IMG/VR virus record: IMGVR_UViG_3300028888_000066 | Span: 1 to 64,000 of that record | Strand: one strand, 5' to 3' | Length of the DNA: 64,000 bases | Origin: a virus | Lineage: Duplodnaviria; Caudoviricetes | In this document: positions 12,458 to 49,200 of the stretch, piece by piece | How the letters are laid out: the number at the start of each line of letters is the position of its first letter | Numbering within the stretch: position 1 is the first letter of the stretch | The notes under the pieces: generated by a model | What the model was told of the DNA's origin: nothing | Seen by the model: the letters and a program-made list of their open reading frames with translations, nothing else | The model's database searches: none | Translations under genes and position numbers: made by a program

Positions 12458-12486
12458 ATTATACATTAAATTTCACTAAAAGTCAA
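12458..12486 (-). promoter_or_regulatory. sigmaA-type promoter
   Basis: TTGACT-17nt-TATAAT. Confidence 0.8.
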
Positions 12487-13413
12487 ATACTAATCTGGTA
12501 ATTTTTCATTAGTCAAAATATCATGTGTAAATCGTAATATATTTATCGGAAATGCTACTTTTCCTCTATACTATAAGCACTGTTTGAGACGTGGATTTCC
12601 TAATAATAACTTATTAGGATCAATCTCTTTTTCAAAGTGCCTGTAGAATATGCGCGCACCCGCCCATGCATCCTCTATATAAATAGGGCGTTCTGCCGCG
12701 GTGCGAATGAACCAATAATATAAGGCAATCGCAATTTGATTTATCTCTGTGGCAGTATTGATATTGTTGTTCCTGCAAATATTAATAGTATGAATAGATG
12801 TTAATGATAATGCGCGAGTCTAATCTTTATATAAACTTATATTATCATTCTTTTGTGTTAATGAATTTTCATCTTTTATCCATTCAATAATTGGAACATC
12901 TTTATATACAATTGGTCGTCCATCAACTTCTGTACATAGTCTACAGGTGCGATTAAATCCTATATCTTCATTCAAATATGAAGATTCGGCCGCGAATGTA
13001 ATATTATATTTCTCTAAAAATGCGCGCTTATATATTTTACCATGCATCCTATTATCAGTTTCTTTAGTTATTCCATCCTTATAGATATAAGGAAAACTAA
13101 TAATATTAGCATCTGGATTCTCTTTAATTGCTTTTATTACTTTATCTTGACTTGCATCAGAAATAAATATATCACCAGTATCTATAAACATAATCCAAGG
13201 ATTATCACTCTTATCAATACCTCGCTGACGCGCGCATCCGGGCCCACTATTTATATTCAATCTAAATAATTGTGCCGCATTTAGTGGGAAAATTGGAGTC
13301 TCTTTAGAATGGTCGTCTATAACTGTTACTTTAAATAAATTCTAATTAATAGAATTAAGTGTATTCAATAATCCTAATCGATTATTATAGTATGGAATAA
13401 TTAAATCAATCAT
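12466..13413 (-). CDS. glycosyltransferase family 2 (TAG read-through)
   Basis: MIDLIIPY...VIDDHS...NSGPGCARQRGI...MFIDTGD. Confidence 0.85.
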
Positions 13414-15073
13414 TCTTTATTTCTCCTATAAAACGATTTATATTTATGCGTGGTATTAGCGGATTACTATATTTAATTAATGTGGATACAGCTTTCTGAT
13501 AATATTGGTTTAGCATATTTTGATTAATTAGTTCAAATTGCTTATAGACATATTTATAAAAATATTTTAGCGCCTATAAATTATCTTTTAGATTATCTGG
13601 ATGTTCTTTAGCGCAACGTAAATAACATTCATACAAATAAACTAAATAATATGTTATTAATCGTGCTGGATATTTCCAATGTAGATTATTTTCTCTACAT
13701 ATTTTTACAATATGCTCTGCATTATAAGATAATCCAGGGATGTGTTTAAAGTAATAAAACGCTCCATTATTTGCCTATGTAATTGAGTCTTTATCTAATA
13801 TACGTCTATATAATACATTAGAATTAAAAGATAGGCGCACATTTTTATCATAAGTAGAAATATATTCTAAAATTAATTTACATGGAGCCATGAAGCCACG
13901 ATCTTCATTAGAGTATGAACCTTCTGGAATGATATTAAATCTAATGTGATATAATTCAATAAATTCACGACTGAAAATTTTTCCCCATAATAAAGTAGTA
14001 TCTTTTTTGAAGTAAGTTCCGCCATCGCCATTCCATGAAGTATAACTAAATATATAAGTTTGACTATAATTAATAATATTTTTAATTGCTTTAGAGAGTG
14101 CCACGCGTGAAGCAATACAATCTCCAGTATCTATAAACATAATATATGGATTATTTGTATGTTCTATTCCATATTGCCGCGCGGCTCCAGGGCCAGAATT
14201 ATGTTCTAACTATAAGAAATTAACTGTTGGAAAATCTTTTTTTAGTTCTTCATAACCTTCTCTTTTAGTAGAACAATCATCAACTACTGTAATAGTTGCC
14301 ATATTATAATTAATTGAATTTAAAGTTTCACGCAATCCATTTACATTATTATAATATGGAATAATTATATCTAGTGCAAAATTATCTGGCACATTGCGTT
14401 TAATTTCAATATCTCTATACTTCTATATAAGTGGAAGTTTTTGCCAATCTTTTACTGCGGCATAATGAATAATTTTTTCTTTTCCTAATTGTAAGCCTGT
14501 ATAATTATTTCTATTATACATATGATTCAATACAAGAATATGGCCTTGACACGCCATATTAATGGCAGTTTGTTCTGTTTCTTCAAAATAATATGTATGT
14601 AAATCTTCTACTAACTTTTTATCTAGTCCATCTTCGCGCCATTTCTTTAAATTTATCATAGCCACACCCATATTTATATAAGTAAGATTGGGTTTGCTTT
14701 TCTATGGTTCTAGACAGCCAGCAATATAATAATTATTTAAATTAAGTTCCCAAAGTTCAGATATATTTTCACGTACAATTGTATCATTATCTATAGTTAA
14801 AATACGATCTAAATGCGGAAAAATCTAACAAAAAACTACACGCAATAATACCATATAACTGCATCTGTTTTTCATATTGATACAATCTGATTTAAACCAC
14901 TATTGCTCACTAACATTTATACATTCTACCTCTGGCGGCAGTTCATAAGGAAATGTATCATCTTCAATTAAAAAATAAATTTTATCTACATTAGAATGAA
15001 TTAGGAGAGATTTCATAGAGGGTATCATATCCTAATATACATTGCGTGTACCGCAATAAACCGCTGCTCTCAT
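13406..15073 (-). CDS. GT8-GT2 fused glycosyltransferase (TAG read-through)
   Basis: Single frame joining ORFs 14671, 14392 and 14140. GT8 (DND, N.GV..INL..WR, HYA) followed by GT2 (IIIPYYN, VVDD, FIDTGD). Confidence 0.8.
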
Positions 15074-15554: not shown

Positions 15555-15684
15555 CTAGACACATCTATGTAGTACGCCGCTCTACCAACTGAGCTAACTG
15601 CGACATAAGGTCGCAGTATTGGACTCGAACCAATGACACGCGGATCCTCAATCATCTTTAGAAAAAGGTTGCTGTATGTGTCTA
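15555..15684 (-). ncRNA. circularly permuted tRNA-like RNA (YrlA-like), CAGCAA family copy D
   Basis: Order is T-arm, closed acceptor hairpin, D-arm, inside TAGACACATACAGCAA...TGTGTCTAG. Confidence 0.8.
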
Positions 15685-15688
15685 TAAG

Positions 15689-15759
15689 AGCACCATACCA
15701 GATTTGAACTGGTGAAAACACGTTGGCAACGTGCTATGTTGCCACTACATCAATGGTGC
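15689..15759 (-). tRNA. tRNA-Gly(GCC)
   Basis: GCACG-TTGCCAA-CGTGT. Confidence 0.9.
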
Positions 15760-15800
15760 GCGCCCGTATTTTCTGGAGATACGGAACTCACTGTGACGTC

Positions 15801-15876
15801 TGCATCCGTAGAGGAGTCGAACCTCAGTTCGGTCCGATTTCGGCCGGACCTAGACTGCCGTAGCCTGAACAGGATG
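15801..15876 (-). ncRNA. atypical tRNA-like RNA
   Basis: CATCC/GGATG acceptor, GGTCCG-GCCGAAAT-CGGACC arm, GAGG-TTCGACT-CCTC. Confidence 0.5.
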
Positions 15877-15907
15877 ATATTGCCCTACTCCGAACTTCAT
15901 ATCGGTA

Positions 15908-15977
15908 TGCCGCAAATGGAATCGAACCATTTATTGCAGTTTACTGACCGCCGAGGAGCTCCACTCCTCCCTACGGT
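15908..15977 (-). ncRNA. atypical tRNA-like RNA
   Basis: 6-bp D-stem GAGGAG/CTCCTC, GCGGT-CAGTAA-ACTGC, AATGG-TTCGATT-CCATT. Confidence 0.5.
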
Positions 15978-16286
15978 TTTCGGACAATAACCTTTGATTT
16001 AATCCTCTTTTATAAAGCGCCGATCAAATGCTGGCAGGTTATCCCAACTTTGCGCTAACGATAGCTATCTTCAGTTTGCATAGCTTGACGCACTATGAAT
16101 AACCGATGAAATCTTTACGATCTAGTCGACACCTTTTGCTACGTCACACCTAGCAGAGTGGGGAGTCTAGACATACCTTCTCTCTATCGCGCCATCCCAG
16201 TTGTCTTATTTACTTGCCTCAAGGTGGATTAGCAAGTCCCTCAAGCACTTCGTTTCGCGCTACTCCATGCTACCTATTGGGAAATA

Positions 16287-16350
16287 CTAGGCACAATAAA
16301 CTCGATTGTTTAACAGACAATTGTTCAAAAAAAATTGCTGCATGTGCCTA
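16287..16350 (-). ncRNA. CAGCAA stem-family RNA copy E
   Basis: TAGGCACATGCAGCAA...TGTGCCTAG. Confidence 0.65.
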
Positions 16351-16418
16351 TGGGCTTAAAGTATTATTTAACGACATTGCCCTGGTTTGTCGGAGTTTTC
16401 TCTGCGTTCTCACGCGTG

Positions 16419-16492
16419 TAGGGTATCTGGGAATCGAACCCAGCATCTTAGGTTTATAAGACCTCTGCTTGAACCAACTAAGCTGATACCCA
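16419..16492 (-). tRNA. tRNA-Ile(TAT)
   Basis: AGGT-CTTATAA-ACCT anticodon arm, CTGGG-TTCGATT-CCCAG T-arm. Confidence 0.85.
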
Positions 16493-16511
16493 TCATCCTT
16501 TCAACATAATA

Positions 16512-16540
16512 ATTATATCAGAATTTATGCTGAAAGTCAA
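16512..16540 (-). promoter_or_regulatory. sigmaA-type promoter
   Basis: TTGACT-17nt-TATAAT. Confidence 0.8.
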
Positions 16541-16544
16541 ATAT

Positions 16545-16724
16545 TTACTGATTAAAATATCTGAAAACATTTTCTTCGGAGAAGCCTACCGATCTCATAA
16601 AATCAAGAAACATTTCACAGATATCATAATCATGAACACCATTTTCGTCTCGTCTTGCCTGCGTTACTGCTTTTTCTTCGCCATTTTCATCATGATAAGT
16701 ATAGGTAAATTCAATTCGTTCCAT
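16545..16724 (-). CDS. small acidic hypothetical protein (59 aa)
   Basis: MERIEFTYTYHDENGEEK..., AGGAG RBS, own promoter. Confidence 0.7.
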   Translation of the reverse strand: MERIEFTYTYHDENGEEKAVTQARRDENGVHDYDICEMFLDFMRSVGFSEENVFRYFNQ

Positions 16725-16756
16725 AGTAAATCTCCTTTTCTTTTTCTTACATATAT

Positions 16757-16785
16757 ATTATATATGAAATTTAACTAAAAGTCAA
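16757..16785 (-). promoter_or_regulatory. sigmaA-type promoter
   Basis: TTGACT-17nt-TATAAT. Confidence 0.8.
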
Positions 16786-17097
16786 ATAAAAAATTTCCCG
16801 CAATTCTTACTGGGCTAGTTGCGCTAGGCGTTCGGAACTGCGGGAAACCTGTAGATAGGTTCGCAACTCCTATCTGCATAAGCGCTATTTCGTGTCGCTT
16901 TACGCCTATTCTAACGTTACAGGTTACGTGTACTAGTGTCGGTGTACAATTGTCCGATGTTATATAAGTAAGGACAGCCTAACATTGGCTCCGCGTCTGT
17001 CATCCTAGGCTGACTTGCAGGGTTATCGCTCCTGGTAGTATTTATAGGCTACTTACATGCCTTTCTCCTATTTTCGCGTCCAGCTAGGAGAAGCTGG

Positions 17098-17187: not shown

Positions 17188-17496
17188 TTAAAAATTATGA
17201 AATGCTTTATAGTCATTTACCATTGCCATTCCATATACACTTAGTGGGAAACAGGTTAAATCGGGATGAGGTTCATCTGCATATACATCATATTCTTGTA
17301 ATATTGCAAATTCGCCATCTTTTCCATATACTTCTTTTTCTTGTCGTATAATCATTTCCCTAGCATAAATATTTCTTTCTCTGGTTACATATCCTATTTC
17401 TGGGCGTGAGCGTAATTCTTGTATAGAAATAGGCCCAGTCTCATTGAAGAATAAAGTGTCTCCTCGCCAAATACGATTAAGTTGTTCCCAAGCCAT
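17188..17496 (-). CDS. hypothetical protein, last gene of the YcaO/rSAM operon
   Basis: MAWEQLNRIW start with GGAGG RBS, overlaps the upstream rSAM gene. Confidence 0.75.
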   Translation of the reverse strand: MAWEQLNRIWRGDTLFFNETGPISIQELRSRPEIGYVTRERNIYAREMIIRQEKEVYGKDGEFAILQEYDVYADEPHPDLTCFPLSVYGMAMVNDYKAFHNF

Positions 17497-18892
17497 TATT
17501 CTTCGCCTCCAATATATCATTTAGCTATAATAATTTTGCTACCGATGCACTACGTGGTTCTCCAAGTGAAAAAGTTTTCAAATAATCTATTACGCCATGT
17601 TCTCTATAATAATTCATTATATAAGTATATTTAGTTTTAAAGAAATCACAAATATTCTTTATAGGGAAGAAAGGATCTTTTTGTGATTCTAATTGGCTAC
17701 CAAAACATCCGCGTAAACAGCAAAAATTGAATTCACATTGGTCACATAAGGGCATAGAAGTTAAGATATTACCCATATAAATCTTTATTGCCATCTATGG
17801 ATTATTAGCTTTTATACCAGTAATACGATTATTTTCGACTACAAAATGTCCATACAGGTATTCATCATATGCTTGACGATGACAGGGGCAAATTGCTAAA
17901 TCTCCTAAACGCACAGTAAGATGATTAGGAACTGTACAACCCTAGAAACTATCGCATTCTCCTATTGCCCAAGGCACATATCCATTTAATGAGGGGTCAT
18001 TGTCTAACTATCTAGCCGAAACAAGAGCATTTCCAAATAATTTTGGATCTCCATGGCATTCACCGTAGAAAAATTCGTCCATTAGAATTTTTAAAAAGGT
18101 ACAATAATCTTTCATATTTTCTTCAGTCCAGCCTTCGTTGCGTACTTCTAATGTCATAATATTTCCAATAGGTAAATTATATTTCTTATCTTGTTCTTTC
18201 CACCATTTATAATTTTCGGGCCATTGTTTGATATTTTGCGCAGAAACCATAGGATGGAATAAAAAGTTATTTACTTTAGCAAATGCAAAAACATTATCAT
18301 AAAACTCATCACTATAAAGTTCTCCATTACGGCGCGGTCTTCCATTATTATCTACAATCTTCCCATCTATAGAAATAGAGAATACAAGAGGACAACCAAT
18401 ATTATTAAATTTATTAACAAATTGTTGAATTTTCTAAAATGCGATAGGATCATTAATAAAGGAACAATTAGAAGTGGTTAAAACATATTTAACTTTCATT
18501 CCTTTTATTACATATTCATATATTAAATCTAAAACATCCCAACCGAATGGAGTCGCAAAAACTTCGCCAGAAAATACATCTAAACATGGTAATTCAAATT
18601 GATTTGCAATGATATAATTGAAAAGAATACGCATGTTTTGTAAAATTAATTCTGGCTTATTATATTGAGCAGGATATAGTTTAGGATATTGCTATAGATA
18701 GCAGTATTCACAATTCTAATCACAAGTAGAAGTAATAAATAATTCTAATTTAGAATCTGGTAAAAGAGAACGATCATCATTAAATTTAGTTAAATGGCGC
18801 CAAGGATTAAAAAAACGCAAATCTAATATAGTTTTTAATAAAGCGTCCTATTCTTTTTGATACTAAATTTTTTCTTCAGTTAAAATTTCCAT
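17477..18892 (-). CDS. radical SAM/SPASM-like enzyme 2 (TAG read-through)
   Basis: CD(TAG)NCEYC CxxxCxxC motif, FSGE, SISIDG, C-terminal CPCHR...CDQCEFNFCCLRGC. Confidence 0.88.
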
Positions 18893-20237
18893 TACAGCTA
18901 TCCTCCTCTAAATAATCTAATGCTCCATTTAACAATAAGATATAGAAACCAGTTGGCTCCAAGCAGAAAGAACCAGTAACTGCATAATTTGCTTTAGGGC
19001 AAAAGGCTGTACTTCCTAATACATATTTTGCCGCATGTAATGCTTCGCCTTCATTTACATATTTTTCTTCAATTAAACCAGCCATAGCTAAAGCAATAAT
19101 AAGGGTAACTGCATTAGTCATTTGTACTGTGGAAGCTGGGTTTAAGTAAGACATTTTACGTTCATGATTCACATATTGATCATCTGTTAAACACATAGGA
19201 ATAGAATGTAGTTCAAAGAATTTATTTAAAGTAACGGTTAAGTCTTTATCTGAGCGCTACGCGGCAAATTTTTTATATTCTTCAACTAGTAATGTAAATC
19301 CTTCATGACAAGCGGAAATCATATTATGTGGTAAAAAACCTACCATAGTACTGCCTGAACCACATCTATTTACATCCCACCTATATTCCGTGCAGGTGCA
19401 ATACTGACCATTGCCATATGGAGTAATTTTTTCGTAATATTTAAAATAATGTTTAATAAAATTTTCTGCTTCAATTTCTCGCGTCTTTTGGACTAGTTCA
19501 CTAAATATTATTCCATCATGTTTTGTTACTGGAGCAGGAACAGCGGTATTAGGAATATCATTTGATATTTGAATATTCTCAATATTTAATTTTTTAATAG
19601 GTTCAATATAGTTATTTTCAAGAAATTGAAAAAATTCAATTAATTTTTGTTTATCATTTAGTTTATGAATACAATCTAAATCCCATGTTCCTTTTAATGT
19701 AATAGTTAAACTTACATTTGAAGGGAATTTTCCTTCTTGCATTAAATTAACTAATTTATTAAAATTGGCAAGGCATCGTTTAGTTACTCCGACACCACGA
19801 TTAGCATCATTAATATATTCTGGACCGTCAATGGATAGCTGTAATAAATATTTAAAAGATCGATAAGGATAATCAGCAAAACATTGCATTAATCCCATAA
19901 ATTCATCTAACCATTCATCATAAGAAAAATTAGTAGATGAATACATATTATCAAAATAAGGATAATATTCAATTAATTTATGAACTAAAGGATAAATGCG
20001 ATGCATTTTAAGGAATGGCTCGCCGCCCCAAGTTTCAAGGGATTTTAATTGGTCGCGGCGTGGAAAATATTCTTTTATACGATTAAAATAATAATCGCCT
20101 TGAAAACTTTCTTCCAGTTCCTTATCTATCTATAATAATGCTGGATTTTTATCAATCGTACAATAACGACAATTTAAATTACATATTCCGCAAGTATAGA
20201 CAACCGCGGTTGTACGTTCTTCATTAAAATTTATCAT
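18876..20237 (-). CDS. radical SAM enzyme 1 (TAG read-through)
   Basis: CNLNCRYC, WGGEP, QLSIDGP, CGSG...ACH. Confidence 0.9.
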
Positions 20238-20244
20238 AAGCACC

Positions 20245-21258
20245 TCACAAATTAGTATGAGCATTTCTAATATCAATATAAGTGGTATATTTACATGTGG
20301 TATGTGCCGTACAGTCGTTTGTTATATTGTGACTATGAGTACCATGAGCAGCACAATTATTTGTACTATTATGGGTATGCGTACCATTAGAACCGCAATT
20401 GTTTGAAATTTTATTACCATGCGTACCATTAGAACCACAGTTATTTACTTTTTTATTGCCATGGGTACCATTGGTAGTACATGCTCCATGATTACAAGCA
20501 GTATTAGTTTGAGTACTATGATTACGATTACCATTTGAACCACAGTGCCCATTAGAATTATTACCATTACCCCACATATTATACTGACAAACCCATTGAG
20601 AATTACCATTATAACTGTTATTTCCATGGCTACGCCATTGATTAGCACTACAACTACCCTGACCGTTATTTCCATTACTATGAGTACCATATGGGTTGCA
20701 GTTATTTACTTTCTTGTTACCGTGAGTACTATGATTTCTTACTCCATGATTACAAGCAGTATTAGTCTATGTACTATGCCCACGATTGCCATGATTACAA
20801 GCAGTATTGGTCTATGTGCTATGGCCGCGATTGCCGTGACTACATGCAGTATTAGTTTGCGTGCCATGTGCTTTTGTTCCATGATTACACGCAGTATTTA
20901 CCTATGTACCATGATTATTCGCGCCAAAACTATGATAAGCGTCATTACGGCATTTTACACTTGGCATATTGCTAACCGTGGTATTAATTCCGGTCCAATC
21001 AACTGGATAAATTACATTACCTATATTAACAGTCTAATTAACCCACCAAGCGGATTCAGTTGATAAATACGTATCTTGCTTAAATTCTGTAATTTTCCCA
21101 TCTAAATTATTAATATTAGATGCCTATATTGTACTATTAGCTGATGGTATTACTAATGTAGTAATAGGCCCACCAAATTGAGTAATAAAAGTATTAAAAG
21201 TTGTGTATACATTTTGTAAATCACTATAAAGAGTAACCTAACCTTGTTCAATTGCCAT
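20245..21258 (-). CDS. Cys/His/Asn/Gly repeat protein, putative multi-core RiPP precursor or modified structural protein (337 aa)
   Basis: About 95 aa of non-repetitive N-terminus, then repeats HSTQTNTACNHG and THGNKKVNNCGSNG. One frame with TAG=Q. Confidence 0.8.
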
Positions 21259-21273
21259 TTAAACCACCTCATC

Positions 21274-23052
21274 TTATGAGGGACTATTATTAATAAATGT
21301 GTCGATCATCTCTAAATATGGACCATGTACAAATCGACTTAACGGTTCTATATATGCCCTCTATAGTAAGTAACTTAAGGATGTACAATTTTCAATATCT
21401 TTTTCGCTAATATTATAATTAAAAATATTATTAAAAATATATAATAATTCTTGTGCAGAATAAATATTGAATTTTACATATAGTAGAAGCTATGTATATT
21501 TTTTATAAGCTTTAAAAATTTCGCTATCTACTAAATCATTTGGAACGTTATCAATAAAACTATTGAATGGATCTAAGAATATTTGTAAATATTGAAGGCC
21601 AATATCATGTTTAGTAGCCAAAGTAAAATGCCATAAGAAGGTATTATCTAATAATCTTTGGACACTAAAACCATATGAATCTGCAGTACGAATTAAATTA
21701 ACTAAATTTGGTATATCAACAGGAGTTTGATCCTTAATTGATCGAAATAATTTGGTATAATCGCTAAGTACCTATAAAGCAATCTCTTTGCTTGTATTAT
21801 CCCATACCATAGGATTAGAATCAATTACATAATTAATTTTATATTGTTCTGTACTTTCTATTATAACCTAAATAGCTTTTATATCTGGCGATAAAGATTT
21901 ATCAATGTAATAAAATTTTGTGCCAAGTGATTTTGCTAATTTGGCAAAATATTTTACAATTGCTTTATTTGTATAATCTTTATCAACAAAAACTTCTTTA
22001 TTATAATAGTCTTTATATTCAATATGATCAAAGAAACAGGCAGGGAAAATTTCACCAGAAATAGAATTTCCATATGTTATTAATAGATTGGACAACTGAA
22101 ATACTTTGTATGGTTGTTGTAATCTGCCCTAAAAGCTAGAACTTTTATAAGTCTGTATTCCTTGATAAAGTTCAGTAATTACTCGTTCCGCTGCAATATC
22201 AAAAACTGGAAAAGCGCCAAAATTCATATTTAATATACCGCTATCTCGATCTACTAGTAATGACATAATTACCGGTAAATGACAGCTATATGATAAATCA
22301 AATAAATAAAATTCATATCCTAACGCTTTAATATTTTTAATTTTTTCCTATATACTTGAATTATTAATATTTTCCAATTTCAAAGCATAATGAGGTTGCT
22401 CAAAATTTTTAAATGTCCAATATTCGCCTTCTCGCTCGACTAATTCAGATAACCCCTGAGCTAAGGCTTCATCTAATGTATTTCCCGCGGCCATGCCATT
22501 AGAACGACAGATTCGTAGTGAAAAGCGTGGATCAATATAAATTTTATCGTTAGAATCATCAATATTAGTCCAGGGTACGCCAACATAGCGGTTATCTGTA
22601 ATAGCACTCATCATTGCGCGAGTAAGTTCTACATCATCACGACAATAAGCATAGACATAGTCTTTAGCTCGACCACAACAATTAAGTGTTTCTTCATATG
22701 TCATAATCTTTTCATCGGGCGTCCAATAGTATCCATTTTTAGCGTAATTTCTGTCCATGTATAAATTACCCCAATAGAGGCTGGGCATAAAATTAATTTG
22801 ATTGCAAAACCGTTCATACAATTCTGCGTATCCACTTGCTAAAGAATAACTTGTGGTCATTCCCTTGCCATTTGCGCCACAAACATTAACATCATTTTTA
22901 AAGCAGTCTACATGACAATACCATGTGCCTGCTTCACTCTAATTTAAATCTGTTTCTTTTAATGTAAAGCCATTCTAATTAAAGAAATCTTTAATAATCT
23001 AAATTGTCTCTTCTGGAGACCTTTCTTTATAATGTGTTGATAAATCAGCCAT
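21274..23052 (-). CDS. YcaO-family protein (TAG read-through)
   Basis: NGKG...ASGYAELYER and SNGMAAGNTLDEALAQGLSELVER motifs. Confidence 0.88.
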
Positions 23053-23076
23053 ATATATATCCTCCAATAAAAATCG

Positions 23077-23164
23077 CGGCCCCGCTGGGATTCGAACCCA
23101 GACTACCTGCTTCAGAGGCATTACGGTTTTAGAGACCGGTGTTGTACCATTCAACTACGGGGCT
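23077..23164 (-). tRNA. amber-decoding tRNA(CTA) with long variable arm
   Basis: CCGGT-CTCTAAA-ACCGT anticodon arm, CTGGG-TTCGAAT-CCCAG T-arm, G73. Confidence 0.88.
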
Positions 23165-23206
23165 ATAAAAGAAAGGACTGATAAGGCTCAGTCCAAGCCT
23201 TAGTCC

Positions 23207-24715: not shown

Positions 24716-24988
24716 TCACTTGAGTGCTTTCTCGATTAACGCGAGAGTTTCTTTTAAACTATCATAAATAGCCTGTAATTGTGTTGTTGTAGAAGTTTCA
24801 GCAGATAGAAATTGGGTCATAGCAAAACCGTTCTTTCCATTATAAGTGGTGCGAACCCATTTTCCATCTACTGTTTCTACATCTAATTTTGCGCCATAGG
24901 GAATCTATGCTAAAACAGGACTTCCAGTATTAGGCGCTTGGCGCAAATTAAGAGTGCCTTTATTTTGTGTTTTAACATACATTATCAT
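24716..24988 (-). CDS. SH3b-domain protein
   Basis: LNLRQAP....VLA(TAG)IPYG...W....YNGKNGF. Confidence 0.8.
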
Positions 24989-25311
24989 TCTGCGGGTACC
25001 TCCACTGCTTTCTGGTCGAGGCTTAGCTGTTCAACCTGAGCCTCAATTGCCGCACGAACAACATCTTCATCAAAGGTCAGACCTTTCTTTTCAAGTAGTT
25101 TCTTTGCTAGACCCAAAGCATAGGCTAACTTATCGTCACCCATCTTCGCGCCGAAAATCTTTTCAGCGGCAAATACTACTGTTTGAGCAATACCTGCTAA
25201 CATAGAAAGCTATTCAGCAGAAACATGACTCTTAATATATGGCCATACAATTAGAGTTACTAGACCACCTAGAATAAAAATAAGACCAAGTAAAATTTGA
25301 GTAATATTCAT
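24985..25311 (-). CDS. holin, LL-H-like (TAG read-through)
   Basis: One N-terminal TM segment, VFAAEK...G.DK...A and AAIEAQV pattern. Confidence 0.8.
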
Positions 25312-25457: not shown

Positions 25458-27371
25458 TTAACGAACACGTATCCAAATGCGTCCATTAACCTTAACATTT
25501 CCAGAACCCCAAATTTCATATTTGGGTATTTCACTAACTATTCCAATAATGGCGTCTGGATAATTACGAATTTCTTCTCGTGTCATAATATCAATAGTAC
25601 CATTGGGGGCGGAGCAGACGGCCATGCCTGCATGATAGTTTTCACGTGGCTAATATGTATAAGCTAAAACTCGCCCAGCCACGGCAATGGGAGTGTGCGC
25701 CAGCTCCGTTTCACCTTCTGCGTATCCGTACGTGTCCGTAATAATCGATGCTCCCGCGATTAATCGTCTATTACTAATAGTAAGACAGCCGTTATCATTT
25801 TCTTGTACACATTTACCTGGTATTATACAATTAGCCTCTCTAAATTCGGCATAGTCATTCCATACTGCATTATATACTTTTTCAGCATGAATATATCCAT
25901 TTGCATCTCTTTTTACAATCGTATTATTATATCCATCTGTTGCAGTGGTTGAAGTAACAACTGTTGCCCATGTAGGTGCCGCGGTACCATTACTCTATAA
26001 TAGACTTCCAGCGATACCAGCTGTGGTAGATGAATATTGTGCAGTTGTTGAGGCATAAATAATACCAAGTGCAGTTGGGGAAGAAGAAGTACCAGTGCCG
26101 CCATGCGGAACATCAAGCACTTGCGTCCAGCTTGGAACTTTATCACTACTTAACTGTAATACCGCGCCTGCAGTTGTTGCCGCTAAGTGTGCAGGAGTAT
26201 TAGCGCCACTCCAATAGATTATATCACCTTTAGTTCCGCTAGTATTGTTTAATATTGTACTATTACTAACATTTCCCAGGCCAACATCTACAGGAGCGGG
26301 TGACTCCCAGGTAGGCGCTCCACTACTGCTTGATCGTAAGAATTTATTAGTTGCTGCCGAGTTTGGATTTAGAACTGTATATGTAGATGAACCAGTACTA
26401 TATAATAATTGATTAGCGCCTGTAAAAATATTTCTAGGAATCTACTACAAATTATCTACATTTGATAATCCGACATCAGTTTTAGTAACTTTATCCCAGA
26501 CTGGTATACCTTTATTTCCACCACTTGCACTGACAGATTTTAAAAATTTATTTTCTAATCCAGAATTACATGCTAAGGTAGCAAGTGCAGTAGAACTAGA
26601 GGCATATATTATATTTCCTGCACTATAACTACTTATTCCGGTTCCGCCATGTTTAGGAGGAAGGACACCCGAGACTCCTATTGCTTGAGGAGTAGTACTT
26701 CCACCCTAAATAGTTGTTTCATTACCAGTGCCAAATGTACTTTGTAAATCTACTTTTACCGGCTAAGCATCTTTAAACTTTGTAGCAGTATCAGCATTGC
26801 CATATAGATTACCAGTGATATTACCTGTAACATTTCCGTATACATTACCAGTGACACTGCCATAGACATTGCCAGTTACATTACCATATAAATTGCCTGT
26901 TACATTACCATACACATTACCTTCTACTGGCCCAATAAATTTATTAGCGGTAACAGTACCACTAAAAGCGACTACCGCGCTTGTGGCTGTATTGTAATTT
27001 ATACTGATAACTGGTGTAGAATAACCATTACTGTTTTTATCATTGCCTAAAGTATAAGTACCATTTGTTCCTATACCCCAACGCCAAGAATATGTACTCT
27101 CACTTTGAGTTACTTTATTAATTTTTATATCAGCCTATTGAGTAGTAGAACGTAAAAAATTAAATTCACTTGATCCGGATGGTAGCTATATATCGGGGCC
27201 TGCGTCTATTAAACTGCCAGATACGCTTGAGGTGCTTCCGGCTCCACTAAAACTTTGGCCCCAAAAGGAATGAGTCGTGGTAAAAGCCTCAGCATATATT
27301 GGATACGACCCTGCATTTGGAAGTATTATCTAACTAATATATGCAGGGTTAACTGCTGGATCTCCGGCCAT
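25458..27371 (-). CDS. tail fibre/spike with C-terminal intramolecular chaperone (peptidase G2-like)
   Basis: 637 aa with TAG=Q. GNVY/GNVT repeats, HGGTG motifs, AVWNDYAE...AGRV...IIGIV. Confidence 0.8.
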
Positions 27372-27377
27372 TCTAAC

Positions 27378-29282
27378 TCACCTCCCATTAAGAATATTAT
27401 TTAACATCTGATTATAGATATTTGAAACCTCTTTATTATTATTCTTTTCTTTAGCAATAGTCATATAACCCAGACCGAGTATTCTATTTCCTAATTCAAA
27501 ATTGCATACTCCCAATATTAAATATGGAAAATAACTGCCCTATCTTACTATTGTACACCACTGATTTTGTCCAGCATTTATCAAGCCTTTTTCACAGTAA
27601 TCTATTGCTTCCTAAAATTTATTAATTCTATAATAAATTTCTCCGCAAAAGAAATAAAGGTCGCCTACATTTGGTAATAAAGAAATACCTTTGTTTAAGA
27701 CCGCAAGACCTTCCTCTATTTCTCCCATCTAATATAAACATTTACCAAGACTAGCGAAGCATCTACCAATTTCTACATCAGCTAAACCAGATGATTCTGC
27801 TAAAATACGACGATACTCTTTAATCGCTTGTTCATATTTAAAATGTACCTCATATTCTGCAGCTAGCTATAAATGAATTAGCCAATTTAGTGGTTCTTCC
27901 TTTACCTATTGTTCACATAATTCAATATACGTTTCACGATTTGGGTGCGTTGGATAATGCCATACAGTAATTGGAATATTTATACATTCATCTTCAAAAA
28001 ACTGGCGTGAATTTGCAACGTTACAAAGTTGTTCATGTACAAGGCCATTATAATGCCAACTATTATTATGTACTCTAAATTCTAAAAAGCATTGAAGCAC
28101 AGAATCGGTTGCTGGATCCACCTAACGATTATAGGTATAAGAACCTCGTAAAAATAATGGATTCCAAGCATTCTTTATACTATCTACCCATCCATCTTCT
28201 TTAATAATTTCATCTAAATCTACCATAAAATACATAGTAGTATCATTTGGCACTAATTTTAAACTTAAATTTCGCGCAGTATCATACCGCCAAGGAGTTA
28301 TGATTTCTTGCTGAATAATTAAATTAGAATATGATTTTCGAGCTTCCTATAAAAATTCCCAAGTGCCATCGGTAGAGCCTGTATCTAAAATACATAAATA
28401 ATCAGCTTGACTAAAGCATTTAACATAATCTTTTACTTTTATAATTTCATCTTTACATATTGCATATACTGCTAATTTAATTTCATTTTTTGCTTTTTCC
28501 CAGTCTAATAAATTAACTTCATCCTATATTTTTTTATGAGCTAAATCATATAAAACTTCAGAATAGGTTTCTTTAGAAGATTTATAAAAAGCTTTCCAAG
28601 GCTTGCGGCCAATAAAATGAATAAAATAACTATTTTTTAATATATCCTCAACCTAATCTTCCTATACATATGGAGCAAATATATTATAATATTTATTTAA
28701 ATGCAGGCTTGTCTATTTGGGCCAATCAGAATAATATAAATTAAGTACTTCCTAATCAGCAATACAACTATTTTTATTCCAAGAAATAGTTTTCATAAAG
28801 TCTATAATTTTATTATATTCTTCTATATTTGGCTCAATGACAAGTAATCCTGCATTTAAATGCGGCTCATCAGGCCATATATTAAAATATTCTCCATCTA
28901 AAGCGGCGGTTAGATGAGGTTTTTCAAATAGATGATCTATATTTTTTAAAACCATAATATCTGCATCTAAAAAGATAATTTTATCAAATTCTGTAAAACT
29001 AAATATTTTAAATTTAGTAAAAGTTAAAGCCCAAGTTCGCGCAAAAATAGCATTAACTTTTGAGTTATATTCAATAAAGCTATCTACTTTAATTGCTTCT
29101 ATTATTCTATATTTTAAATTTAACTATTCTAATATATTTAATACTGGTTTTGAAACATTAGGTGTAACTATTACTTCTAATGGATATTCAGTATTAACTT
29201 CCTATAAACTCTTTTGTAATAAAATAATTCCATATATATAGCTATCATCTGATAGTAATGTCATATAAGAATAATTTTTCAT
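27378..29282 (-). CDS. GT8-GT2-TPR fused glycosyltransferase (TAG read-through)
   Basis: FLDAD, AD(TAG)EVLN, HFIGRKPW, then in frame AICKDE, DTGSTDGT, DLDE, and a helical TPR-like tail. Confidence 0.85.
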
Positions 29283-43235: not shown

Positions 43236-46200
43236 TTAAATTGCCAGCATATAACTAAGTTTAGCGGTAGTCGCATTAGCATTGGAAAGATTTAACTATC
43301 CAGCATTATTATTATTTGCAACTACTGTAGCAAAATTAACACCATTATTTGAATTACAAATAATAGAACGAGTGAAGTAGCTATCCGCTTTTACCCAACC
43401 GCCGATACCTTCAGAATCACTATCAATATTAGCAGCAATACTATCTCTAATACCAGTAAATTTAGAATTGTTACCTGTGGTTGACATAATAGATAATCCA
43501 TATTTATTAATTTCAGCATTGGATACATAAATATATGCACCATTTGCATCAATATAAATATCACCACTTCTAATATTGGAATTACCAATAGAATCTGCAA
43601 TTGTACGAGTTGGTGATTCAATATTATCAACAAATACACGCATAATATTATTACCTAGACCAAAATGAATAGCTTTTCCCGGGAACCTTAAATTCAAATA
43701 ATATGTATTACTATTAGTTGATGCTTTCCAAGTCTAGTTAGTATCACGATTGAATAAACTAATATGATTTGCTATTAACCAACTAAATGGATTAATTATC
43801 TGATCTTCATTTTCATATGCATCTGCATCTTCTTGTAAATTAGCAATACTATAAGCAAACGCATAATTTCGTACCGTACCATAAACTATATTTTCACCAG
43901 TTCTTGATACAGCATAATATGGAGAATCAGTTTTATATACCGCACGCGTATAAGCAACCTAACTCTTACATAAAATAGATTGTAATTTAATAGGCAAACT
44001 ATTGTAAACACGCTTATCTAATACTGTCTAGAAATCTGTATCTTCGCCCCAACCATATACTTCATTTAAATCATAAGTACTGAAAGAGACACTCTATTTA
44101 CGATCGGAATAAATTTTACCATGCATAGGAGTGTTTAAGGTAGCAAGATAAATTGAAGGCGTCGGAATTACAGCGGTGTCGCTCGCGCGCTTATTAATAA
44201 TAATTGCATTATTATCTCGATATGCATATGGGATACCATAAGTCATATATTCATGCGGCCAAGACGCTAATTTTTTGCATTCTCCGTACCCAACGTCTTC
44301 ACTCCAGTATTTAGCCCAATAAATATTACAACAGGCATTAGTAATATTAATAATATTACTATCAGAAGACTATATAGTTTCACGTGCAGTATCATACAAC
44401 GCACCAAAATTAAGATATGCATTAGAATTAAAGTTAAGAGAGCCTGTTCTCGTAATAGATTCTTCGAAAACATCTAATGGTAAGGTTGTCTCATTACCGC
44501 AACTAGAGTAAATATAAAGGGTAGGACTATTTGCTGGATGACGTAATACTACAATATTACGCATATTAGCATTAACAGCACTACTGATTGCTTTCCTCTA
44601 TGTTGAGTCACTATACATAGCGCCAAATCCAACTTCAACCTAGCCAGAAGAACTATTATAGAATAAGCCTAAACCACTTCTAACATTGTCTGCGCTATGA
44701 TAGCAACTGGCAATAATAGCAAAGGTCTTGTTATAGGTTAAACTATCTAAACTATAATCTATTGCTAATGTAAATGCATCATTTCCCGCGACTAGTGGCT
44801 AAATACTAGTTGTCTAATAATCATTACCATCTCCTGTAAAATACCAAGGATCGCTGGTATCAGCATGAATAGTCTGACCACTAATACTTAAATTATCATA
44901 CCCTAACTTATATTTTACCTAAGTGTCTACCTAAATTAAATTATCTAAACTATAAGTTTGTTTTTGAGCCTAGGTTAATGAAGCATAAATTAATAATTGT
45001 TCGGGAGTTAACGAAGTAGTATCAGCAAATATATTTGGAATACTGTCCTATATAGTTTCTATATCTGCGATGATATCAAAATAATCAGTAAGGCCATCAG
45101 GATGGATATTCGCGGAAGAAGTCTACCAACCTTTAAATATATGAGCTGTAACTTGACCATTGCTAATACTAACATCACAAGTCTCAAAATGAGCATTGTG
45201 AATGTCCATTGCGGTTGGGGCCTCTTCTTCAGCGCCGCCACCATAAGGTACTGTATGATCATTTGCTCTTACTAATTTGGTTTTTTCTTCATCTAAATAC
45301 CATCTTATAGTGTAATCTCTTGGAATCGTTTCAAAATATTCTTGAAGAATAGTATCTTCTTGTATTACTTTTGCACCACTTAATGGAGTTGAAGCGCCAT
45401 ATTCTTTCCATCCAGAATATGTTACATAGGTACCATTACGAGGGTCACGTAAGCCAAAGATATATCTTTCTTGCGGCGTCTGGGCTCGCGCAGGCATATG
45501 CCCAATTGTGCCATTAGAATAAATATCTGGCGCAGTATTTCCATCATTAATATAGAGAATTGTGGTCTGATCTTCATAATAGTATGTTACTCTATGCTTT
45601 ATCTCTTCCTTTGTAGGATCAATAATAATTCTAAGATCTGGGAATAACGGACTCTCATTATAATCTCTTGCTAAAATAGAATTATTCCAAACCCTATCAT
45701 CTCCTTCGCCAGTATAATAACCAACTGTATTGGTATAAACTTTAGCTTCAACTTTAGACCATGCTCCAGTAATAGTAATAGTACCACTTAATACAATTAA
45801 TCCACCAGCGTCTTCTATTATTGGCTTTAAACGTCCAATAGAATCTATTGTTTGTAATGCTGTAATAGTAGCAGTAGATAATTTCTATAGTGATAAATGC
45901 GTACTAGTACTTTCTTTCTATAACATACCTACAGCCACATCAAGCCAATGTACATTACTAGAATAGTCACTATCATTAATATCTAAAGTATATAGTGAAT
46001 TATATGTTTCAGTACCATTCCTATCTGTAATAGAGAAATCAGTTAAGAAACGCGCGCTATTTAATACTAAATCAGTAACCGTTGAAGGTAGATGTAAAGT
46101 CTAAATTTGTGTATATTCGGGTAATGCAATACCGCCTATGATGCTGCCAGCGGCTTCTACAGTTCGTAGATTATTTGCGGTTCTTAGGCCTATTGGTGTT

Positions 46201-49200
46201 GCGAGGCTACCACAATTCTTAATATTTAATGTTTCAAGTAGTGGTAACTATGTTTCATTTGTTAATGGTAGTTCAACGAAGTTTCCATTACGATAACCAG
46301 AATTATCAGTACCAACATCTAATTCTTTTAGGTGATCTAGATTATTTAATGTAAATGCATAAGGATACATTGGCGCTAAATTACCTAATTTAGATATCAT
46401 CTTAAAGCCGCTAATATATACACGAGTTTCAGCGAAGTTACCTGCTGTATAATCATCTAGTTTAATAGTATATTCTTGATTAGCTTTCGCGCGAATCGGA
46501 GGAATTGGAGTACCATTACCAACAACTACATTCAAATACATATCTTGATATGGAGTTAAATGTAAATGATAGTCAGGCTATACTGCTAATAATGAATGAT
46601 CTCCCGCGGGAGAAACAATGTTAAATTCTGTCTTATTAACAGAAATATCACCAATATTATATTTACTATTAAAATAGAATCCCTAATCACGTACCCACTG
46701 ACGGCGTTGATATTTCTTACGGCCCTGCATCATGGACATTAAGAAACGAGCATTTTGCTTACCCTCTTGTACAGAATTATCTACTGAAGCGCCAGTATAT
46801 GTTCTAATATACTTACGTTCAATATCAAGACGCCAAATTTCTTCTGGGAAGCAATTCTGGAAATCATCAAATTCTTTAATTAGATGTTCAGAATTGAAAC
46901 AGTTCTTACCAGTATTGTTCATAACTTCAGCAATTTCTTCTGGGAAAGTTGTCTTTAATCTACGCCAGAAAATAGAACCAGCACCATTAAAGGCATAACC
47001 TGAGGAAGGCTCGCCATCTACACGATAGTCATCATCTTCTTTACCATAAGGGAATACAAGTGCACCGTTATTATCAATACCAAGCGCAGTATCGCAGTCA
47101 TATACCCATAAATCAAATGCATATTGAGTATAATAAGTAGCGGAAGGATCAAATGCCCCTGTCGCTGGAACGAATGTACCGGTCCACACATTAGTATCAT
47201 TAGAATTAGAAAGATTCTAAACTGCGTCTTCAGAAGTCTCATAAACATGGAATAAAGCTTCGACTGGTCTACTAACTTTCCGATGAATACCAGTTTTAGC
47301 AAAATGCCAGAAAGTGTTTTTCGCGCGGTTATCCATCATTGTATAATAATGAGTGTACGCATAGAAGAATTCCATAGCATTCTTTACAAACCATTCTGAA
47401 GCTTCAGTTCTATATTGCTGTTCCGTCGCGGTTATTGCCCATTCATACATAGCTAGCATAACATCATGGTTAAGATCAAATTGTACATCATCTTTTGTAC
47501 GTGGTTCATTTTTACTATTTAATATAGTACTGTTACCATTCGTATCATTTATTAAATCACCATCACGATAATCGCCCTTACAAGCATATCTAAATTCGAA
47601 GGAATGGTCTCCATCAAATTCTTCCGTTACTAATGTCATATGTTTTCTATTTAAATAATCATCACCAAATTTAACATTCCATTGACTTGGTGTAATTGGA
47701 TAAATATATTCCATAGGATTAGGATTAGTACGAGGTGCAAAATATGGAGGTGTATCATCGGTCCAACCAGTATAAGTAATTGCTGTCCAAGCACTACTAT
47801 TCCAGGTAGATTCTGCTGCTTGGTCCGCTCCAGTTAATGTATAAACCATACCATTATATACCACAATATCACCAGTAGTATATGCATTAGCACTATTCCA
47901 AGCCGCATAATCTGTTTCAATTGCATCGTGAGACTGATAATTAAATACACCAGACTGGAATTGACCATTATTGGTATTATTATCTGAATTTTCACAGGTA
48001 AATTCATTCATATCATCTGGGTCATAAGCACGGGTATAGTCGGTTTTCTTGGAATCACCAATATTACCCAATGCATAGAAGTGCCAATTAGTATCTTTAA
48101 ATTCGGTATGCGTTGCAATTGTCGCATTATGTTCACGTACAAATAATACTGCTGGAACAAACTCCATACAATTCTTTACAATAACATCTTCAATATTATC
48201 GTATGTATCGTGGTGCTTTGCTACTTGAGCAGCCTAGGCTGGGGAACTATAAGTTAAGAAATCATTATATCTCTTTTGGAATAAAGCATTATTAACATTT
48301 TCAGAAGATGCTACATTAACTTTTAAGTTAAAATAGTTATTGGGTACTGATGAATTAGTTAATGAAACTTTACAATCATCATTCTTCCAATCAGAGCATT
48401 TACTAGTAGTACCAATCTTTTTCCAATTTCTAGCATCAAATGCCTACTCACTGGTATGATTTTTGGTACAAGAATAAATAATGCCAGAATATTGATCTTC
48501 AATAATTACTTTATCGCCTAAAACATATGGGGTCTCTGGCTCCCAAGCATTGTAAGATGCGCTCCAAGAAGTTCCATCAAAAGTACTAGCATCCTTACCT
48601 TTAATAACTTCAGAAATATAAGTTGGATTTTCTACAATCTTATATTTGCCCATATTCTTAGATTTAGTAGGCCAGTGTACTGCATCAACCTCAAATAAGA
48701 AGTCTACGTTTCTTGCGGCCTAACCATAGTTATCAGATGTGGTACCCTGTCCAGCATGGAAACCATTTATAAATAGCCAGTTATCTTCATCTCCACGAGA
48801 AGTGTAGATATTACCGCCATCCGCATGAATACAACGTAAGGATGAATTCATAACAAAGTCTTTTTTACCAGTTGTAAAAACATCTGTATCTAACATTAAG
48901 ATTTTTACATTTGGCATTTTCGCAGCTAATTTGATTGGATCTAATGTAGATTCGGCAGTCTTGGTCAGCATATATCCGCCTTCACCGTCATTTAATGCAG
49001 GATTCCAATAAATACAGTTTCTATCATATCTTTCAACTTTTTCATTTAAATCTTTACCATCGGCAATAAAGTTTTGGAGAATCTAGTCTGTACTTAAAGC
49101 CTTAACATAATAACGTAAACGATAGATATAAACATCACAATCGTTTGAACCAATATGAATCGTTCCATTATGACTGATCTTATCTCCGCCAGAACCAGTG

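Follow-up and report, generated by a model that had tools for sequence, protein, structure and literature searches.

Prochlorosin and proteusin precursors combine a long conserved N-terminal part with a hypervariable C-terminal part, and several such paralogues are served by one enzyme set. Among the closest described systems that act on whole proteins, CrpC, a SPASM radical S-adenosylmethionine (SAM) enzyme of Methanococcus voltae, installs thioether (ranthionine) cross-links on the protein CrpA, whose N-terminal domain aids engagement of the enzyme (PMC13692751, 2026). The YcaO of E. coli (EcYcaO) thioamidates the folded ribosomal protein uL16 without TfuA, with sulfide in vitro (PMC13063428, 2026), and in the HXS system HxsB and HxsC, together with the small protein HxsD, mature the His-x-Ser repeat effector HxsA, which blocks phage DNA entry (PMC13128918, 2026). 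Here we analyze a phage locus that shares features with each of these systems, at positions 17188-23164 of a 64,000-nucleotide stretch (hereafter the window) of an IMG/VR phage contig (IMGVR_UViG_3300028888_000066; 132,621 bp, estimated 74% complete), which is matched best by public sequencing runs from sheep-gut samples. The locus encodes a repeat protein, which we call X, two radical SAM enzymes (rSAM1 and rSAM2), a YcaO protein, and a small open reading frame (ORF). It has the general makeup of a system for peptides made by the ribosome and modified after translation (RiPPs), in that a precursor-like gene with a conserved N-terminal and a variable C-terminal part lies beside its candidate maturase genes. 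To our knowledge, phages have not been known to own RiPP-type maturation machinery for their own proteins.

We find the order X-rSAM1-rSAM2 again in over 30 independent contigs of phages or metagenomes, and a metagenome scan gave 31 further loci with rSAM1. In every contig that has sequence upstream of rSAM1, an X-type ORF ends just before it, and this adjacency holds in both genetic codes, under several gene orders, and at enzyme identities of 25-67%. A first-pass annotation of the stretch, made from the sequence alone, had named the repeat protein as the probable substrate and had looked to relatives for conserved synteny and for co-occurrence of the repeat gene with the enzymes; both are found, as a co-oriented, overlapping cassette in many independent phages. 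Because X always adjoins the radical SAM pair, it is the obvious candidate substrate, and this adjacency, when taken with the conserved and hypervariable parts of X, its several paralogues, and the maturase-like enzymes, suggested to us that X undergoes a RiPP-like maturation. Our reading, which we hold to be probable, is that a conserved phage cassette built on a radical SAM pair, with or without a YcaO, modifies X.

Amber recoding and conservation of the cassette

Read in the standard code (translation table 11), positions 17188-23164 break up into short fragments. When TAG is read as Gln, five co-oriented minus-strand ORFs appear, with small gaps or overlaps between them (Table 1), and no TAA or TGA lies inside any of the five joined frames. 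The tightly packed operon drawn by the first-pass annotation, which depended on frames free of these two stops, therefore stands, with its 337-aa repeat protein and its TAG-free 102-aa ORF. The five genes together hold 28 in-frame TAG codons, which break four of the five in the standard code, so that the operon is untranslatable without amber suppression, as had been claimed. The companion claim that standard-code mining would miss the cassette holds in part: recoding does hide it here, but recoding is not a defining property, as the related phage L007 uses the standard code. For rSAM1, the ATG at 20237 is the likely start and yields the 453 aa seen in its relatives; for the small ORF, position 17496 is the likely start and yields 102 aa.

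In the TAG columns of the five-gene alignments of seven phages, 66 of the 310 cells contributed by the other phages hold Gln (21%, against a background of 3.4%); Lys and Glu rank after Gln, and Ser is not enriched. The TAG that falls inside the CxxxCxxC motif of rSAM2, already pointed out in the first pass, corresponds to Q71 in CDQNCEYC and aligns with Gln in homologues (CNQxCEYC), and in the repeat units of X, TAG and CAA alternate at the same repeat position. It is clear from these alignments that TAG is to be read as Gln in this phage. Ser and Leu were considered as meanings of TAG because the tRNA has a long extra arm, and both were ruled out by the column test together with the repeat units. 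Elsewhere in the window, a 3,285-aa ORF (43236-53093, minus strand) with 37 in-frame TAG codons is seen only when TAG is read as Gln.

The operon would depend, through its 28 TAG codons, on the amber suppressor tRNA(CUA) that is encoded directly ahead of it. This tRNA has several oddities, including a type-II-like extra arm (5 bp with a 7-nt loop), an A1:C72 mismatch, and G73; the suppressor tRNAs of the relatives have the same long form (88-93 nt). Its 3' end lies 23 nt ahead of the ycaO ATG, with GGAGG in between, close to the approximately 25 nt first given. In the window, L002, L005, L006, and L008, the tRNA immediately precedes ycaO, and in L003 it follows the operon; it is thus placed directly before ycaO in five of the six recoded phages examined that have ycaO upstream of X. 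With phage phAss-1, the suppressor tRNA shares ∼87% identity along 67 nt, which is the extent of the relation, and the phAss-1 paper mentions neither YcaO nor radical SAM.

The full order YcaO-X-rSAM1-rSAM2-small ORF occurs in L002, L003, and L005, all TAG-recoded and fetched as contexts of YcaO homologues, and two IMG/VR contigs (L006 and L008) carry the same operon as the window. Compared with the window, rSAM1, the best-conserved gene in the cassette, is 62-66% identical, rSAM2 47-55%, YcaO 40-46%, the N-terminal domain of X 48-57%, and the small ORF 31-36%. L007, which has no suppressor tRNA, encodes YcaO, a 132-aa ORF, X, rSAM1, and rSAM2. L013 has a suppressor tRNA and no YcaO; its order is X-rSAM1-rSAM2-small ORF, followed by a glycosyltransferase family 2 (GT2) gene (L013:10035-11057) that overlaps the end of the small ORF. 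More divergent X-like proteins are found in L014-L017 and L019. By gene content, the core of the cassette is X, rSAM1, and rSAM2. No match to rSAM1 (L013 and L007 versions as queries) was found by tblastn against 50,697 GenBank phage records, and a pattern scan for rSAM1 in 185,579 species genomes, which has limited sensitivity, returned no bacterial or prophage copy and two remote matches (24-25% identity). A literature search found no description of this system. In the collections searched, the family so far appears to be confined to uncultured phage contigs.

Table 1. Features of the cassette and its surroundings, with positions in the window
Feature	Position	Strand	Evidence or remark
tRNA(CUA), amber suppressor, 89 nt	23076-23164	-	ARAGORN; Rfam tRNA 56.9 bits; fold
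YcaO, 592 aa, 9 TAG	21274-23052	-	Pfam PF02624, 1.6e-35
X (repeat protein), 337 aa, 6 TAG	20245-21258	-	TAG=Gln translation
X N-terminal domain, residues 1-108	20935-21258	-	Hidden Markov model (HMM) search; AlphaFold2 model
X hypervariable repeat tail, units such as HSTQTNTACNHGNRG and THGNKKVNNCGSNG	20296-20934	-	Translation; DNA repeats
X conserved C-terminal motif TCKYTTYIDIRNAHTNL and stop codon	20245-20295	-	Motif kept in most family members
rSAM1, 453 aa, 2 TAG, CNLNCRYC	18876-20237	-	Alignment with relatives; ORF extends to 20276
rSAM2, 483 aa, 11 TAG, CDQNCEYC	17477-18928	-	Invariant Cys in alignment
Small ORF, 102 aa, no TAG	17188-17496	-	Family search without match; ORF extends to 17520
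Terminator-like hairpin	23175-23194	-	Between upstream 113-aa gene and tRNA
113-aa Lys/Glu-rich ORF, no TAG	23548-23207	-	Directly behind promoter-like site and cow-rumen-4 RNA
cow-rumen-4 RNA, full-length match	23614-23549	-	Rfam, 60.7 bits (gathering score 48.5)
Promoter-like site, TTGACA-17-TATAAT	23647-23619	-	Perfect sigma-70 type
SH3 protein	24716-24988		Upstream of cassette in transcription direction
Holin	24985-25311		Upstream of cassette in transcription direction
Tail-fibre-like protein, 637 aa, GNVYGNVTGN-type repeat run	25458-27371	-	Weak PHROG 30742 match; just upstream of lysis genes
GT8-TPR protein	27378-29282	-	Upstream of cassette
GT8+GT2 protein	13406-15073	-	Downstream; kept in L002, L003, L005
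GT2 protein	12466-13413	-	Downstream

The radical SAM pair and an accessory YcaO

The cluster motifs reported in the first pass for both radical SAM enzymes, and the SPASM-like Cys tail of rSAM2, are borne out by the alignments. rSAM1 keeps CNLNCRYC and WGGEPF (the GGE motif) together with four further invariant Cys residues in a twitch-like arrangement. Its family matches cover only the core of RiPP-maturase families (DynA, GggB, YhhB, twitch, TIGR04463, and others), all below threshold: the rSAM1 proteins score 22-30 bits against TIGR04463 (1e-5 to 2e-7; cut-off 525), the YhhB and GrrM (triceptide-type) models give weak matches, and profile searches of the PDB with rSAM1 gave no match. In rSAM2, C69-x3-C73-x2-C76 and FSGE are invariant in 11 phages, as are G342 and the SPASM residues C331, C349, C395-x2-C398-x5-C404-x3-C408, and C427. 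The layout C-x(9-15)-G-x4-C, gap, C-x2-C-x5-C-x3-C, gap, C is thus present in rSAM2, with a slightly off-canonical first half, in that the Cys of G-x4-C (C347) varies and C349 (G-x6-C) is invariant instead. The SPASM HMM TIGR04085 gives the window rSAM2 16.2 bits against a cut-off of 27 and matches 3 of the 11 members, at up to 9e-7. Pfam Radical SAM (PF04055) scores rSAM1 at 18.2 and rSAM2 at 15.5 bits, short of its gathering score of 29.5, and PHROG 1802 ('radical SAM domain') matches rSAM1/rSAM2 at 9e-10 and 2e-13. By hhalign, the two enzymes are remote paralogues of one another, with E 5e-4 for an alignment of 252 columns into which the first half of the SPASM motif falls.

Among named families, PapB, QhpD, and the CteB type, all of them formers of thioethers, come nearest to rSAM2. 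The ranthipeptide maturase PapB (NF047865) matches rSAM2 in all 11 members, best at 3e-15 and always below its cut-off (23.4 bits for the window, against 340); QhpD matches 8 of the 11 and SCIFF 4, and the CteB structure 5WGG is matched at 2e-7. The seven-Cys SPASM layout is common to these enzymes, and QhpD, like the role proposed here, staples a protein subunit. These enzymes, however, act on short peptides with Cys-x3-Asp/Glu or on the QhpC subunit, and the Cys-free tails found in the phage family cannot be thioether substrates. The likeness to the Crp system, whose radical SAM/SPASM enzyme belongs to TIGR04463, lies in a SPASM enzyme gene that adjoins the gene of a large, repeat-bearing, Cys-rich protein whose N-terminal domain is conserved and whose C-terminal region is repetitive. 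In contrast to Crp, the phage system has two radical SAM enzymes, no recognizable RiPP recognition element (RRE), an accessory YcaO, and a late-gene context; X has a different N-terminal domain and many Cys-free tails, and the TIGR04463 scores given above fall far short.

The HXS system (TIGR03976-03979) also pairs two adjacent radical SAM enzymes with a small protein and a repeat protein, and weak similarity to its enzymes is present here: HxsB matches 5 of the 11 rSAM2 members (best 5e-10; cut-off 370 bits), and HxsC matches the rSAM1 of L017 (1e-6; cut-off 268 bits). Such a set of parts, with many H-x-S/T units in the repeat protein, could form an exclusion or counter-defense effector directed against competing phages or a host HXS-type defense. 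We give this a slim chance. HXS is a defense of bacteria (Pseudomonadota) with another gene order; its HxsA undergoes export and cleavage, and a YcaO may be an addition in the phage version. Neither X nor the small ORF matches the HxsA or HxsD models, the enzyme scores lie far under their cut-offs, X has no signal peptide and no peptidoglycan-binding domain (as judged from the translation and Pfam), and many tails contain no His. Moreover, heavy TAG use marks late genes, a poor fit to superinfection exclusion.

The YcaO assignment is firm: PF02624 covers residues 61-398 at 123.4 bits (cut-off 25.7), with the same result in a six-frame search of the genome, bearing out the gene called in the first pass. 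The ATP/Mg2+ residues (S73, E77, E80, R81, E195, Q199, S202, E203, E206, E289, R290, and E294) are invariant in 20 relatives and align with the motifs of E. coli YcaO in 4Q84, which is also the best solved relative (5e-24, ∼29% identity, residues 10-299). The best NCBIfam model is the EcYcaO equivalog NF040716, at 117.3 bits against a cut-off of 700, so that the protein is not a member; SagD (TIGR03604), the azoline-forming cyclodehydratase of thiazole/oxazole-modified microcins, scores 44 bits against 219. The C-terminus ends in ...FINNSPS and has no PxPxP. Scans with Pfam, NCBIfam, and PHROGs found no E1-like or Ocin-ThiF partner domain among the neighboring proteins, and a search for TfuA (PF07812) across the 132,621 bp of this ∼74% complete record was negative. 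The first-pass statement that no E1-like or TfuA partner, protease, or exporter is present agrees with these searches, in which TfuA, PqqD/RRE, protease, and exporter were all not found. The 272 YcaO homologues collected are ∼590 aa long, come from metagenomes, and are all unnamed.

A central place for YcaO in the system does not survive the comparison of relatives: the gene lies before X in some phages and after the small ORF in others (L047, L048, L049, and L052), and it is absent from L013 and L037. YcaO is thus accessory, outside the cassette core. Its two separate placements within the operon argue that it is functionally linked to it. A separate observation concerns L010 (5944-9776), where two genes precede that of a divergent phage YcaO (28% identity): one for a radical SAM enzyme, the other for a 259-aa protein whose C-terminus is rich in Cys, Gly, and Asp. 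This set of YcaO, radical SAM, and Cys-rich protein may represent a separate, independent arrangement.

The phage YcaO resembles EcYcaO in length (592 versus 586 aa), in its ATP/Mg motif, in having no TfuA, and in its C-terminus without PxPxP, and EcYcaO works on a protein and not on a leader peptide. As EcYcaO, the nearest characterized relative, modifies uL16 (PMC13063428), one may ask whether the phage YcaO, and perhaps the radical SAM enzymes, act on a host or phage component of translation, with X as an unrelated neighbor; a uL16-like thioamidation near the peptidyl-transferase center could then aid amber read-through. The position of the suppressor tRNA directly upstream of ycaO in most of the recoded phages fits this idea. 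We consider it improbable. The similarity to EcYcaO is confined to the N-terminal half, well short of family membership; YcaO is also present in L007, with the standard code and no suppressor tRNA, and missing from L013, which has one; and the invariant partner of the radical SAM pair is X, not YcaO. A further difference from EcYcaO is that the phage ycaO adjoins a candidate substrate and radical SAM genes. Judged by profile scores, the phage proteins are not members of the CrpC, HXS, or EcYcaO families, as every curated cut-off is missed widely.

Protein X and its hypervariable tail

The unique N-terminal part of X spans ∼105-108 aa, longer than the ∼95 aa first estimated, and ends in a nearly invariant VKCRN junction. 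A profile of this domain (110 residues) matched 202 clusters (50% identity) at E ≤ 1e-3 among 1.84 billion representatives. In almost all matches listed, the domain occupies residues 1-110 of proteins of 150-420 aa, and in two longer proteins (P0255 and P0268) it is internal. Ten X clusters that we looked up are all unnamed or 'hypothetical' and lie on contigs of at most 186 kb. AlphaFold2 models the domain (111 sequences) as a helical bundle with helices at residues 11-29, 46-61, 65-71, and 85-100 (pLDDT, the predicted score in the local distance difference test, 83; predicted template modeling score, pTM, 0.75). Foldseek comparison of this model with the PDB gave nothing clear (E > 3), comparison with BFVD gave weak matches only, to uncharacterized phage and rudivirus proteins (E 0.15-0.5), and in a VIA wide fold search the best scores (Z 6.4 for a BARA domain, 5.8 for TssK) are background for a helical domain.

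The 102-aa ORF overlaps the end of rSAM2 by 20 nt. Searches with Pfam, NCBIfam, and PHROGs, a profile search of the PDB, and Atlas all left it without a match (a score of 0.89 in Atlas is noise). By profile, it is found wherever the N-terminal domain of X is of the window type, and only there, which suggests that its product and this domain interact. It probably serves the N-terminal domain as an adaptor or chaperone.

In the tail of X, DNA repeats of 45 nt and 42 nt underlie the protein repeats. Tails are 70-370 residues long and differ wholly in sequence between phages while remaining alike in composition; units such as CCNTQACGR, CCNTNSTNG, NSHGT, GWSQG, FNSS, and SYDSSHRS are seen across phages. 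Over 105 tails (12.5 thousand residues), N and S make up 15% each, G and T 12% each, C 6.6%, H 4.6%, Y 4.3%, F 2.8%, and W 1.3%; the tail in the window is rich in N, S, T, G, H, and C. Cys and aromatic residues (His, Tyr, Phe, and Trp) recur along the tails at regular spacing. Local preferences are S-H-G-T/Q-K around His and T-C-S-N-G-T around Cys, and aromatic-[G/S] pairs stand 13.7 standard deviations above shuffled tails. Aromatic residues are present at a median of 12 per 100 aa, and only 2 of the 105 tails have fewer than 3. Most tails close with the motif T-x-I-D-I-x-N/C-x-x-T-x-N.

The first pass had offered a cross-linked, metal-binding fibre as one possible product; neither metal binding nor chemistry on Cys can account for the whole family, as 13 of the 105 tails have one Cys or none. 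The same observation bears on the idea that X is an unmodified structural protein, disordered or metal-binding through Cys and His, whose proximity to the enzymes reflects operon packing. The tail in the window is indeed Cys/His-rich, and AlphaFold2 gives it no predicted fold (full-length X, 4-sequence alignment, pLDDT 31). Yet X adjoins rSAM1 throughout the range of contigs, enzyme identities, and genetic codes given above, and Cys-free and His-poor tails retain the same enzymes. This alternative is, in our judgment, highly improbable.

Several X proteins can be served by one enzyme set. In L037, three X paralogues surround the enzymes (X-X-rSAM1-rSAM2-small ORF-X, L037:4094-10068), with near-identical N-terminal domains and C-terminal halves and differing middles, and G001, a complete 193-kb genome, has a second, distant X copy. 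In this respect, and in the split into a conserved N-terminal and a hypervariable C-terminal part, the family is like the prochlorosin and proteusin precursors. It differs from them in its other enzymes, its far longer 'cores', the lack of a leader protease or exporter, and its occurrence, so far, only in phage contigs. We also observed tandem X-like gene pairs with a different N-terminus beside the same radical SAM pair in more distant phages (L017:6095-6989 and L019:6064-6992). Their N-terminus, W-x-P-I-x-x-G-D-I-I-x-A-S-H-x-N-E-I, recalls tail-fibre motifs; their tails are Asp/Ser/Tyr-rich and nearly Cys-free, and baseplate-like genes adjoin them.

Genomic setting and the product of the cassette

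The cassette lies among late genes. A tail-fibre-like gene and lysis genes precede it in the direction of transcription, and tRNAs and glycosyltransferase (GT) genes follow it in the window (Table 1); L002, L003, and L005 likewise have tail-fibre and lysis genes upstream and tRNAs and GT8+GT2 downstream. The first pass had put the tRNA and ycaO behind the same promoter, which our analysis does not support: the sole strong promoter-like site is upstream of another gene, that of the 113-aa ORF, and a terminator-like hairpin sits just before the tRNA. Because this hairpin separates the 113-aa ORF from the tRNA, a common promoter is possible only by read-through past it. The cow-rumen-4 RNA between the promoter-like site and the 113-aa ORF has the look of a phage gene's 5' leader. 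Contigs identical to 17346-21840 are present in two RNA libraries from a single sheep-gut sample, a hint that the operon is transcribed; depth is ∼100x over the tRNA block, 4-20x over the operon, and 1-4x over the GT genes, and is flat in the DNA run. The ∼100x block, a group of tRNA and tRNA-like genes at 15600-16800 of the window, reaches this depth in both libraries, which suggests that its small RNAs are abundant.

We propose that this late-gene cassette makes and post-translationally modifies one phage protein, X. The N-terminal domain of X would most likely be a recognition or 'leader' domain and possibly an anchor. rSAM1, twitch-like and with one extra cluster site, and rSAM2, with its SPASM domain, would most likely join side chains along the tail by covalent cross-links. 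Our best guess is that these are thioethers where Cys is present; in Cys-free tails, they would run to aromatic residues and be of the C-C or C-O kind. In one clade, a TfuA-independent YcaO of the E. coli type would add ATP-dependent activation of backbone amides. We consider a thioamide slightly more likely than an azoline as its product because of the closest relative, the sulfide-rich anaerobic habitat, and the absence of TfuA and of PxPxP; an azoline is favored by the richness of the tails in Cys, Ser, and Thr. As the flanking glycosyltransferases make glycosylation of the tail conceivable, the Ser/Thr/Asn-rich tail could, by analogy with serine-rich-repeat adhesins, be glycosylated as well.

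Two fates of the product can be weighed. X could be a classical released RiPP whose N-terminal domain is a leader cut by a host protease or some other protease, so that the tail is freed at lysis as a multi-core peptide, with lysis in place of an exporter and a role as antimicrobial, signal, or anti-competitor agent. The conserved 'leader' and hypervariable 'core', the several paralogues (L037 and G001) as in the prochlorosin and proteusin types, the place of the enzymes in the RiPP-maturase branch, and the near-invariant VKCRN junction as a possible cleavage site all fit such a peptide. The tails, however, far exceed known RiPP cores in length, no protease, RRE, or exporter was found in or near the cassette, and the conserved C-terminal motif and the tail/lysis gene position suit a structural protein better; we regard release as unlikely. 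Instead, we tentatively lean toward a full-length, stapled, protease-resistant virion-associated protein, that is, a tail-associated fibre or adhesin. This preference, which stays somewhat short of even confidence, follows from the late gene position beside tail and lysis genes, the tails of up to ∼370 residues, the conserved C-terminal motif, the lack of a protease or exporter, and the linked glycosyltransferases.

Several observations weigh against modification of X or its place on the virion. Every radical SAM family match is far below its curated cut-off, and homology cannot give the chemistry. An RRE is not recognizable in either enzyme, and the PqqD-like profile PF05402 has no match in the genome, where a divergent RRE could escape it. 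With one Cys at most in some tails, a single chemistry cannot fit all, and the aromatic-x-[S/T/N] pattern, which cyclophanes of three residues (triceptides) would lead one to expect, is barely enriched in tails (z ∼2 versus shuffled). No fold match in the PDB, BFVD, or VIA wide places the N-terminal domain on the virion, and the RNA-library contigs may be carried-over phage DNA.

The system joins two themes seen separately elsewhere, SPASM stapling of whole proteins, as in Crp, and E. coli-type YcaO activity on folded proteins, as with uL16. It offers a candidate substrate encoded beside an E. coli-type YcaO and could help define the function of this YcaO branch. With a single conserved recognition domain in front of hypervariable tails, the family offers a natural library to those who study enzymes and their substrates or engineer cross-linked proteins, and the locus is a concrete case of biosynthetic potential that is invisible to standard-code gene calling.

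It is possible, and we put this forward with reserve, that large phages of the gut and rumen use RiPP-type chemistry to construct part of their own particle, in the form of a stapled, YcaO-thioamidated, and possibly glycosylated hypervariable fibre or adhesin. If so, the phages would possess a protease-proof, fast-diversifying host-recognition element that is stapled by a dedicated radical SAM pair in the reducing cytoplasm. X would then be without precedent as an enzymatically cross-linked virion component of its kind, and its family, with hundreds of members, would be a new class of modified proteins restricted to phages. A place for X on the virion would bear on how gut phages survive proteases and recognize their hosts.

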